In this document: piece by piece, positions 43,197 to 44,747 of the stretch
How the letters are laid out: each line of letters starts with the position of its first letter
Numbering within the stretch: position 1 is the first letter of the stretch
From: Phycisphaerae bacterium
GTDB lineage: Bacteria > Planctomycetota > Phycisphaerae > FEN-1346
Reading direction: 5' to 3'
Length of the DNA stretch: 63,645 bases
Assembly (NCBI GenBank): GCA_046483505.1
Contig: JAWODB010000309.1
Coordinates: 1-63,645 of the forward strand
Made by a program: the position numbers and the translations under genes
Notes under the pieces: model-generated
The model's input: only the letters and a program-made list of their open reading frames with translations
Database searches by the model: none
Told to the model about the DNA's origin: nothing

Positions 43197-44747
43197 TTAC
43201 GATCCCCGAAGTTTCCTGATGAGCAGGTCGCGGACGACCTTCGGGTTCGCCTTGCCGCCCGTCTTCTTCTTGGCCATGCCGATGAGTCGTCCGACGGCCT
43301 TGTCCACGCCGTCGGCGAACTGGCGGGCGGCGTCCGGGTTCTCGGCGATGACCTCGTCGACGAGGGCCTCGAGCTGGCCCGCGTCGGAGGTCTGGGCGAG
43401 GTTCTCTTCCTTGATGATCTGGTCGGGCGGGTTGCCGGTTTCAAGCATCCGGTCAAACACTCTGGACCCCACTTCTCTGCTGGTCGTGCCCTGCTCAACC
43501 AGGATTATCAGTTCGGCCAGCCGTTCCTCAGAGAAATGCTCTAAATCTGAAAGGCGGACGTCTTGCCCGCTTCGTGCTCGTTCCTCGTTTAGCGCGCGTC
43601 TTACATCCTGCTCAATCCAATTTCGAGCGACCTGCAAGTCTCGACCATCAGTGCCCCAAGTCAGCGGCGTACGAAGATCGTCGAGACAACCCAACAGTTT
43701 CTCGTAACACTCTCCCAGGTCTTCTTCCTGAAGGAAGATGTTCGCTTGTTCCCGAGACAGGCCCATGCTCATGTAGTGCTGCCGCTTCTTCTCCTGGGAT
43801 TCGGGCATATCCTCCTTGACCTTGTCAATCAGCGAAGCGCCGTTTTCCAGTAACTCATAGGGTCGGACAGGCACGAGGTCCGGCTCCGGGAAGTAGCGGT
43901 AATCGTGGGCCTCTTCCTTCGACCGCTGGAGGAACGAGGTGCCGCGGTCGTCGTTCCAGCCGCGGGTGGACTTGCCCAGATTCTCCAGGGTGTACCCGTC
44001 CGGGTCGGCGGCGAGTTCGTCGCGGTGGCGGCGGATTTCGAAGTCAACCGCCCGCGCCACGCTGCGGAACGAGTTCAGGTTCTTGATCTCCGTGATGGGC
44101 GTGTAGCGCGGCGCGCCGCCGGCGTCCTCGCCGATTCGCAGGCTGATGTTCGGCTCGAACCGCATCTGCCCGAGTTGCATGTTGCAATGGCCGACGCCGA
44201 GGTAGACGGCCAGTTGCCGCAGCGCCTCGCCGTAGGCCCGCGCCTGGGCGGCGGAGTGGATGTCCGGCTCCGAAACGATCTCCAGCAGCGGCGTGCCCGT
44301 GCGGTTCAGGTCCACGACGGAGACGTTCGACCCGTCCTCGGCGTGGACGAGTTTGCCGGCGTCCTCCTCCAGGTGGACGCGCGTGATACCCACGCGGAAC
44401 GTCTCGCCCTCGAGTTCCACATCCAGGTGCCCGCCGACGCCGAGCGGCTCGTCGTATTCGGATATCTGGTAATTCTTCGGCAGGTCCGGGTAATAGTAGT
44501 GCTTGCGGTCCCACTTGGCGAAGTCGGGGATGCGGCAGCCGAGGCCGAGGGCCATCCGCACCGCCAGTTCCACCGCCACCTGGTTCATCACCGGCAGGAC
44601 GCCCGGCATGCCGAGGCACACGGGGCAGACGCACGTGTTGGGCGGGGCGTCGTAGCGGACCTCGCACCCGCAGAACATCTTCGTGCGGGTCGCCAGGTGC
44701 AGGTGCACCTCCATGCCGATGGTCGGGATGGGGTCCGCGGCACTCAT
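43197..44747 (-). CDS. gatB: Asp/Glu-tRNA amidotransferase subunit B
   Basis: IGMEVH, CPVCLGMPGVLP, YYYPDLPKNYQIS, HLEEDAGK, EIKNLNSF, DYRYFPEPDL. Confidence 0.97.
   Translation of the reverse strand: MSAADPIPTIGMEVHLHLATRTKMFCGCEVRYDAPPNTCVCPVCLGMPGVLPVMNQVAVELAVRMALGLGCRIPDFAKWDRKHYYYPDLPKNYQISEYDEPLGVGGHLDVELEGETFRVGITRVHLEEDAGKLVHAEDGSNVSVVDLNRTGTPLLEIVSEPDIHSAAQARAYGEALRQLAVYLGVGHCNMQLGQMRFEPNISLRIGEDAGGAPRYTPITEIKNLNSFRSVARAVDFEIRRHRDELAADPDGYTLENLGKSTRGWNDDRGTSFLQRSKEEAHDYRYFPEPDLVPVRPYELLENGASLIDKVKEDMPESQEKKRQHYMSMGLSREQANIFLQEEDLGECYEKLLGCLDDLRTPLTWGTDGRDLQVARNWIEQDVRRALNEERARSGQDVRLSDLEHFSEERLAELIILVEQGTTSREVGSRVFDRMLETGNPPDQIIKEENLAQTSDAGQLEALVDEVIAENPDAARQFADGVDKAVGRLIGMAKKKTGGKANPKVVRDLLIRKLRGS

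Follow-up and report, generated by a model that had tools for sequence, protein, structure and literature searches.

We analysed a 63,645-nucleotide contig of a Phycisphaerae bacterium (JAWODB010000309.1, forward strand; hereafter the window), which belongs to a metagenome bin of 352 contigs and 89% completeness (G000), and we describe a compositional anomaly within its gatB gene. This gene (43197..44747, minus strand) encodes subunit B of the tRNA-dependent amidotransferase, a protein of 516 residues, as identified by translation, Pfam and solved relatives. It is the last of three genes that lie on one strand in the order gatC-gatA-gatB and were assigned by Pfam: gatC (46397..46732) has a GC content at third codon positions (GC3) of 0.90, and gatA (44744..46309; Amidase family), with a GC3 of 0.96, overlaps the start of gatB by 4 nt. 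The gatB product contains a GatB_N domain (PF02934, residues 9–295, 2.3e-103) and a GatB_Yqey domain (PF02637, residues 369–513, 3.8e-33). Its closest solved structures are the GatB chains 3H0L, 3AL0 and 2DF4, to which it aligns from end to end, and the lysine-rich motif described for the GatB tail (PMC2811023, in the portion of that paper used here) is intact as KKKTGGKANP.

Within gatB, GC content in 120-bp windows is 0.53–0.57 at about 43400–43880 compared with 0.66–0.72 elsewhere in the gene, and GC3 in 30-codon windows drops from 0.87–1.0 to 0.47–0.57. A two-change-point likelihood scan delimited this low-GC3 patch as codons 293–436 (43440–43871, minus strand), with a GC3 of 0.60 against 0.93 outside (twice the log-likelihood gain, 2dlnL, 71.5). 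The original prediction, made from the letters of the window, had placed a low-GC, in-frame patch at 43430..43870, which is nearly identical, and had it begin directly after the motif YFPEPDL in an open frame; the translation bears out both points. Codon usage likewise confirms the dip: from the amino acids of the patch and the codon usage of the 24 other genes in the window, a patch GC3 of 0.917 ± 0.022 is expected (z = −13.6), and the lowest of 20,000 simulated values was not under 0.826. Since the fall in GC3 extends to almost every class of amino acid, amino-acid composition can be ruled out as the cause. Across the genome, 300-bp windows with a GC content of at most 0.54 make up 0.5%, and the first percentile of GC3 in 50-codon windows is 0.54, the latter from a noisy scan in which stop-to-stop open reading frames (ORFs) took in upstream non-coding DNA.

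Set against the limits given for Staphylococcus aureus GatB in the same portion of the structural paper (cradle 1–294, helical domain 295–407, tail 412–475; PMC2811023), the patch is the tRNA-side helical domain of GatB, short of the final helix. The catalytic cradle domain that precedes it (residues 1–293, 43869..44747, minus strand) has a GC3 of 0.92 and an amino acid identity of 76–93% within the family, and its final part (residues 275–293, 43869..43925, minus strand), ending in ...EEAHDYRYFPEPDL, forms a 5' anchor defined by nucleotide identity within the family. On the other side, the end of the helical domain and the YqeY-like tail (residues 441–516, 43200..43427, minus strand, by translation and composition) again have a GC3 of 0.92. 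An AlphaFold model (mean predicted local distance difference test score, pLDDT, 84.4) shows seven helices at residues 306–437 and is all-alpha across the patch, where pLDDT is 81–90. As anticipated in the original prediction, the patch is still GatB-like, with PF02637 covering residues 369–513, and it carries extra residues. These number about 25 and are located, relative to the Aquifex GatB 3H0L, after PDL, in a loop at residues 358–368 and around residues 389–394. The loop (43644..43676, minus strand), which has low pLDDT and lies between helices 342–357 and 369–393 in model and alignment, is part of an insert of about 13–20 residues that marks one type of the domain, type B (see below). Just 3' of gatB, the stretch 43034–43167 contains a GC-rich 28-nt inverted repeat (43082–43109 and 43132–43159) and a 25-nt tandem pair; contig depth over it was 10–100 times that of adjacent sequence in three runs, and it is therefore a dispersed repeat, similar to repetitive extragenic palindromes, or a widely shared terminator element.

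As to the role of the enzyme, a glutaminyl-tRNA synthetase (GlnRS) is encoded in G000 (C171:1047–2624, L102; 693 bits, above cut-off), and no asparaginyl-tRNA synthetase above the cut-off was found in this 89%-complete genome; GatCAB is therefore likely to serve as an Asp-tRNAAsn amidotransferase. The GatCAB of the host probably acts on tRNAAsn only and would probably be its sole route to Asn-tRNAAsn. Relaxed recognition of tRNAGln after the gain of a GlnRS was considered as a source of the patch and rejected, as GlnRS was found above the cut-off in 86 of the 121 class genomes sampled and is not specific to the family.

The patch is spanned by independently assembled sequence. Logan contigs from three runs and two studies, one run being possibly the source sample, bridge both of its edges: record 2 of run X1 covers 43135–44304 and record 12 of run X2 covers 43334–43964, each with 0 differences, and record 21 of run X3, from the second study, covers 43309–43986 with 6 differences. 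No alternative patch alleles were seen in the contigs of the three runs, although rare variants are lost from such contigs. In four runs, numerous contigs from other organisms match only 43879–43919, the part encoding the ...YRYFPEPD anchor, and diverge on either side of it. The same architecture is present in the independent metagenome loci L027 and L028 and in the proteins P0002–P0004. Two further contigs end at or in the patch: L015 (G002:C145, from the same genus) stops exactly at residue 293, the patch boundary, and the metagenome contig L029 stops inside the patch at residue 412, which suggests that this segment tends to break assemblies.

The dip is common in the family of the host, whose members are GC-rich bacteria of sediments. 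Among 21 complete family genes (from 19 species genomes and the metagenome loci L027 and L028; the partial genes L015, L029 and L075 were excluded from the GC3 counts for family and class), GC3 of the flanks exceeds that of the patch by 0.12–0.40 in 15 and by at most 0.07 in 6. In other families of the class, the difference is at most 0.07 in 39 of 42 genomes (range −0.08 to +0.14), a set that includes several genomes with GC3 above 0.9. The change-point scan identified a significant low-GC3 segment in 14 of 19 family genes, always within residues 273–484, and no significant segment in five canonical family genes (2dlnL 5.9–9.2). Domain length varies as well: the helical domain has 119 residues in most class genomes outside the family and 118–144 within it. 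Averaged over pairs of family members, nucleotide identity is 0.83–0.88 over residues 275–294, 0.52 at residue 295 and 0.36–0.39 at residues 353–366. The original prediction had supposed that the observation would fall if close relatives had the same composition. L027 and L028 do share the low patch GC3 (0.59–0.64), yet the observation does not fall, and the shared composition is a trait inherited in the lineage, not the product of a recent event.

Alignment revealed at least three very divergent types of the helical domain within the family: the canonical type A of 119 residues, the longer type B, which has an inserted loop containing tryptophan and is carried by the host genome, and type C. 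Sub-blocks are mosaic across types, with VRPHEPRGDRASVAEVAKQ common to L002 (type B) and L010 (type C). When 64 patches were compared by BLASTP, identity to the host patch was 43–71% for type B, 29–33% for type A of the family, 30% for the sister family and at most 26% for the rest of the class. With the flanking domain, rather than a ribosomal tree, as the reference phylogeny, separate trees of patch and flank, which the original prediction had proposed as a check, were found to conflict. In the N-terminal tree, the family is monophyletic (support 100), as is the genus clade L001+L027+L003+L028 (99). In the patch tree, the family patches form one group (89/72) and type B forms a clade (97/92), and L003 pairs with L010 of another genus (100/100). 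Forcing the genus clade on the patch tree costs 53 log-likelihood units and is rejected by the approximately unbiased (AU) test (p = 9e-5). The distribution of types thus conflicts with the flank phylogeny, which points to exchange of the domain between lineages.

Two pairs illustrate the exchange. L028 and L003 are 94% identical in the amino acids of the flanks, with 0.32 synonymous substitutions per site (dS), and have patches that are 32% identical; for L006 and L032, patch dS is 0.08 versus a flank dS of 0.39. These patterns argue for recombination that begins and ends in the conserved flanks, and whole or partial cassettes have been swapped between family lineages by homologous recombination, by all indications through the conserved anchors. 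The exchanged unit is not the whole gene: residues ~293–440 differ in type, and the flanks follow the family tree. Only one protein-level gatB match was found in G000, consistent with one form per genome. Of the earlier proposal of a recombinational replacement from a lower-GC donor, the replacement is therefore upheld by the AU test, and the lower-GC donor is not, as the nearest relatives belong to a high-GC family.

Substitutions between relatives bear on the low GC3. Between G000 and its type B relatives, patch dS is 1.3–1.9 versus 0.3–0.5 in the flanks, and the number of non-synonymous substitutions per site (dN) is 0.16 versus 0.06–0.09. With a dN/dS of about 0.12 (0.156/1.29), the patch protein is under purifying selection. 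The ratio of patch to flank dS is 0.7–1.4 in canonical high-GC3 pairs and 2.5–4.3 in low-GC3 pairs of the same type. We polarised synonymous third-position changes by parsimony in two trios, G000/L027/L028 and L007/L014/L002, distinguishing strong (S; G or C) from weak (W; A or T) bases. Changes between G and C are blind to a GC-favouring bias and so allow mutation rate and allele age to be controlled for. In the first trio, S>W changes per ancestral S site are more frequent in the patch (18/46) than in the flanks (33/279; odds ratio 4.8, p = 2e-5), whereas S>S changes occur at the same rate (9/46 vs 50/279, p = 0.84); W>S changes per ancestral W site do not differ significantly (16/30 vs 12/20, p = 0.77), and inside the patch, S>W and W>S changes are balanced (18 vs 16). 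The second trio gave the same picture, with S>S at 7/22 in the patch vs 66/217 in the flanks and S>W at 9/22 vs 33/217. The equal rate of G<->C changes speaks against a mutation rate that is higher in the patch, and likewise against alleles of greater age there, in the two trios. The fixation of GC to AT changes is thus about three times as frequent in the patch as in the flanks, and for these two trios the low GC3 is an equilibrium of fixation bias that is local and stable.

Taken together, these results lead us to favour, with a probability of roughly 55%, a reading in which the helical domain is a hypervariable cassette between conserved anchors, is exchanged within the family and owes its low GC3 to a weak local GC-favouring force. 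Mutation is, to our knowledge, universally biased towards AT. The force that holds GC3 at about 0.92 across the genome would act only weakly on the cassette. This force could be GC-biased gene conversion or selection for GC-ending codons, of which GC-biased gene conversion would be the leading candidate for the one that is weakened. Very divergent, indel-rich alleles would be unable to form heteroduplexes, so that a cassette would be either replaced whole or skipped.

Several points weigh against this reading. The cause of the weakened force is one that we infer, and the patch looks uniform in one population, where gene conversion should act on it as on the flanks. Other fast-evolving genes of G000 keep a high GC3, so divergence alone does not lower it. 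In ileS, another gene with a low-GC3 patch (described below), S>S changes on the G000 branch are raised too (6/51 vs 14/500), which looks like import rather than drift in place. The polarised counts are small, and with synonymous sites near saturation (pS 0.6) parsimony is biased. The group submitted to the AU test was picked after the alignment had been seen, although it agrees with the genus label of the genome collection, and the monophyly of the family patches is only moderately supported (89/72), with long branches involved.

A broader version of the preferred reading can be put forward tentatively, as a possibility that we hold to be distinctly less likely than the reading for gatB itself: domain-sized cassettes in GatB, IleRS, LeuRS and, more weakly, ArgRS would be long-lived compartments without GC-favouring bias, kept as exchangeable, divergent "domain homeoalleles". 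It draws on similar patches elsewhere in the genome. A filter that looked within open frames for stretches of low GC flanked by high GC3 returned 15 matches, five of which have a true GC3 dip to 0.75 or below: gatB, which is the longest, ileS, leuS, an SNF2/PLD helicase and a DUF3485 protein. A second filter, which missed gatB through a merger of ORFs, yielded 12 milder patches in unrelated genes, including one for a MiaB-like enzyme. That tRNA enzymes are affected is thus partly upheld, in that they are prominent among the patched genes but not exclusive. In ileS (L022; G000:C319:678–3797), GC3 is 0.40–0.73 at about residues 286–390 of the ORF, at the indel-rich start of the editing-domain region. 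This dip recurs patchily in the family, for example in G004, G018 and G013, and is absent in G001 and G002 of the same genus, to which G000 is 84–93% identical in the flanks versus 54–64% in the patch. On the G000 branch, S>W changes (10/51 vs 6/500) are raised along with the S>S changes given above, and the ileS patch of G000 looks like an import from a divergent allele. In leuS (L023; G000:C141:1196–3847), GC3 is 0.53–0.63 at about residues 666–770 of the ORF, from after the KMSKS region into the start of the anticodon-binding domain. The original prediction had named a similar patch in argS, which lies in the window (54045–55970, plus strand). A dip is present there, in the catalytic domain according to Pfam and GC3 (about residues 185–345, 54597..55079; GC3 0.60–0.80), but it is weaker than that of gatB, and ileS and leuS offer the stronger parallels. 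Elsewhere in the window, the first 900 nucleotides have a GC content of 0.48–0.51 and hold an ORF of 247 residues (77–820) and the beginning of one of 290 residues (820–1692); no Pfam family was found for either, and this start of the contig may be foreign or mobile DNA.

Classical horizontal gene transfer (HGT) is the next explanation to be weighed. The helical variants would have come from an unsampled lower-GC lineage or mobile element and then spread in the family, the GC3 being the signature of the donor. A GC3 of 0.5–0.6 does resemble foreign DNA in a genome with a GC3 of 0.92, cassettes demonstrably move between lineages, the raised S>S and S>W changes of the ileS patch on the G000 branch are those expected of an import, and families with a lower whole-gene GC3 (0.6–0.67) exist in the class. 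However, no donor-like sequence was found in 1.84e9 protein representatives, in the 42 class genomes outside the family or in viral contigs. When 5.8e9 proteins were searched with the patch by a word-based method, three relatives were returned (70, 71 and 49% identity), whose N-terminal domains are near-identical to that of the host GatB. A phmmer search against the 1.84e9 representatives gave 14 matches at E ≤ 1e-3, the best a fragment that is 54% identical and resembles P0004, and canonical GatBs reached only about 4e-4; clustering of the representatives at 50% whole-protein identity may mask patch relatives from the family itself, but not a foreign donor lineage. The nearest patch relatives are without exception GatBs from within this high-GC family, and patch similarity tracks the family phylogeny. 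Three lineages separated by a patch dS of 1.3–1.9 have kept a GC3 of about 0.6, with S>W and W>S changes in balance and an S>W rate 3.3 times that of the flanks. A stable GC3 and balanced changes despite a dS above 1 are not what amelioration under the normal forces of the genome would give. In addition, the anchors of a low-GC3 donor would presumably be too dissimilar for homologous recombination. We therefore regard a foreign origin of the composition as unlikely. A phage-borne pool of cassettes was also considered and rejected, as no patch relatives were found in viral contigs by a scan that could detect close relatives only.

Still more doubtful, in our estimate, is the idea that selection favours slowly read codons ending in A or T, or an AT-rich mRNA, throughout the domain, for example to allow time for the cradle to fold or for assembly with GatA and GatC. 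The dip does start exactly at the domain boundary and is stable over long divergence, the ileS and leuS dips overlap Pfam domain limits, and argS shows a milder one. On the other hand, the same architecture occurs without a dip in 39 of the 42 out-of-family genomes and in 6 of the 21 family genes, and the boundaries of the low-GC3 segment vary between family members. The dip also accompanies a hypervariable protein and indels, neither of which would be needed for a signal of translation speed, and W>S changes per site, in a comparison of low power, are not fewer than in the flanks (16/30 vs 12/20).

Localized hypermutation or diversification, put forward in the original prediction as the alternative to replacement, is very improbable, whether the helical domain were targeted by a diversity-generating retroelement (DGR) or by another mechanism. 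The high patch dS in same-type pairs (2.5–4.3 times that of the flanks) and the hypervariable protein would be in keeping with it. Against this, the G<->C control, with its equal per-site rates in patch and flanks of both trios, gives no sign of hypermutation in the substitution spectrum, and a dN/dS of 0.12 speaks for constraint. The search for a template-like copy and a reverse transcriptase also turned out negative: the sole match to 43400–43900 in the 89%-complete genome is the window itself, and the sole reverse transcriptase of G000 (C271:9680–10345, L030; RVT_1 and GIIM) is a group II intron maturase, with no DGR-type reverse transcriptase found in the genome. Patch variants are also absent from the contigs of the three runs, which can hide rare ones, and an all-alpha enzyme domain is not a typical DGR target. 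Switching by silent cassettes or site-specific recombination was rejected as well, given the single gatB match, the lack of a second DNA copy and the absence of meaningful direct or inverted repeats flanking the patch. An antisense gene or RNA element was likewise dismissed, as the three plus-strand (antisense) ORFs in the patch match no Pfam family and no Rfam match lies inside it. Finally, a chimera of assembly or binning, in which the gatB segment of a lower-GC organism was joined into the contig, would suit a 352-contig metagenome bin and the end of the G002 contig at residue 293, but its probability is negligible in view of the three runs that cross both edges, the shared architecture of L027, L028 and P0002–P0004, and the recurrence of the feature in 13 of 19 family species genomes.

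The reading that we favour, an exchanged cassette under a weak GC-favouring force, has several implications. GatB and the synthetases are conserved "informational" markers in phylogeny, and a domain swapped between genera, with a composition of its own, can mislead marker-gene trees as well as composition-based HGT detectors and metagenome assemblers. Two parts of one gene here separate mutation rate from fixation bias, and so clean a split is rare in the debate on bacterial GC richness. If the bias is gene conversion, the broader version of this reading would show GC-biased gene conversion at work in bacteria, in nature and at the sub-genic level, and would suggest a runaway process, in which divergence blocks recombination, GC content falls and divergence accelerates. 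The question raised is why the tRNA-side domain of GatB is free, or driven, to diversify in one family only; alternatively, an arms race with some agent that targets them may maintain the diversity of the tRNA-side domains of GatB and the three synthetases. No description of a hypervariable or low-GC helical domain of GatB was found in open-access papers and preprints.

Among known systems, diversity-generating retroelements also produce a short hypervariable stretch within an ORF, but gatB lacks a template repeat, a DGR reverse transcriptase and variability within the population, and the target is a domain of a cytoplasmic enzyme. A second comparison is with mosaic genes that arise by homologous recombination between species, in which divergent blocks lie between conserved stretches and the phylogeny shifts along the gene. 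The abrupt change of identity at the block edges and the differing phylogenies along the gene are shared with gatB. Unlike in such genes, no external donor of the gatB block can be named, and its composition is unlike that of the genome of any family member. A third is the accuracy model of codon usage, reportedly a hypothesis of Akashi. Codon usage is less optimised where genes are variable than where they are conserved, as stated in the portion of the paper used here (Lopez et al, 2020; PMC7374057). Taken alone, however, the accuracy model predicts a similar dip in helical domains of equal variability from other high-GC families of the class, and its absence in 39 of the 42 out-of-family genomes means that accuracy-driven codon differences cannot explain the family-specific dip. 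Bacterial GC-biased gene conversion comes closer. It has been put forward as a link, separate from codon selection, between recombination and the GC heterogeneity found within genomes (Lassalle et al, 2015; PMC4450053), and the excess of fixed GC to AT changes in the patch, with unchanged G<->C exchange, is the pattern expected under a weak bias. That study, in the part relied on here, compares genes and genomes, whereas the contrast in gatB is between domains of one gene and comes from substitutions alone.

The nearest known concept is that of the aminoacyl-tRNA synthetase homeoalleles, described for TyrRS, ThrRS and SerRS (Andam & Gogarten; PMC3191353). As far as the part of that paper used here goes, both systems comprise divergent forms that serve one function in a higher taxon; each genome has a single form, the distribution of forms runs counter to the organismal tree, and they are replaced by homologous recombination in conserved flanks with an unchanged gene neighbourhood. 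They differ in that the unit in gatB is one domain of about 430 bp rather than a whole gene, that the enzyme is an amidotransferase rather than a synthetase, and that the GatB forms all seem confined to one family, with a stably low GC3 in the variant ones. The gatB patch is thus best compared to a homeoallele at the level of a domain, with a distinct composition.

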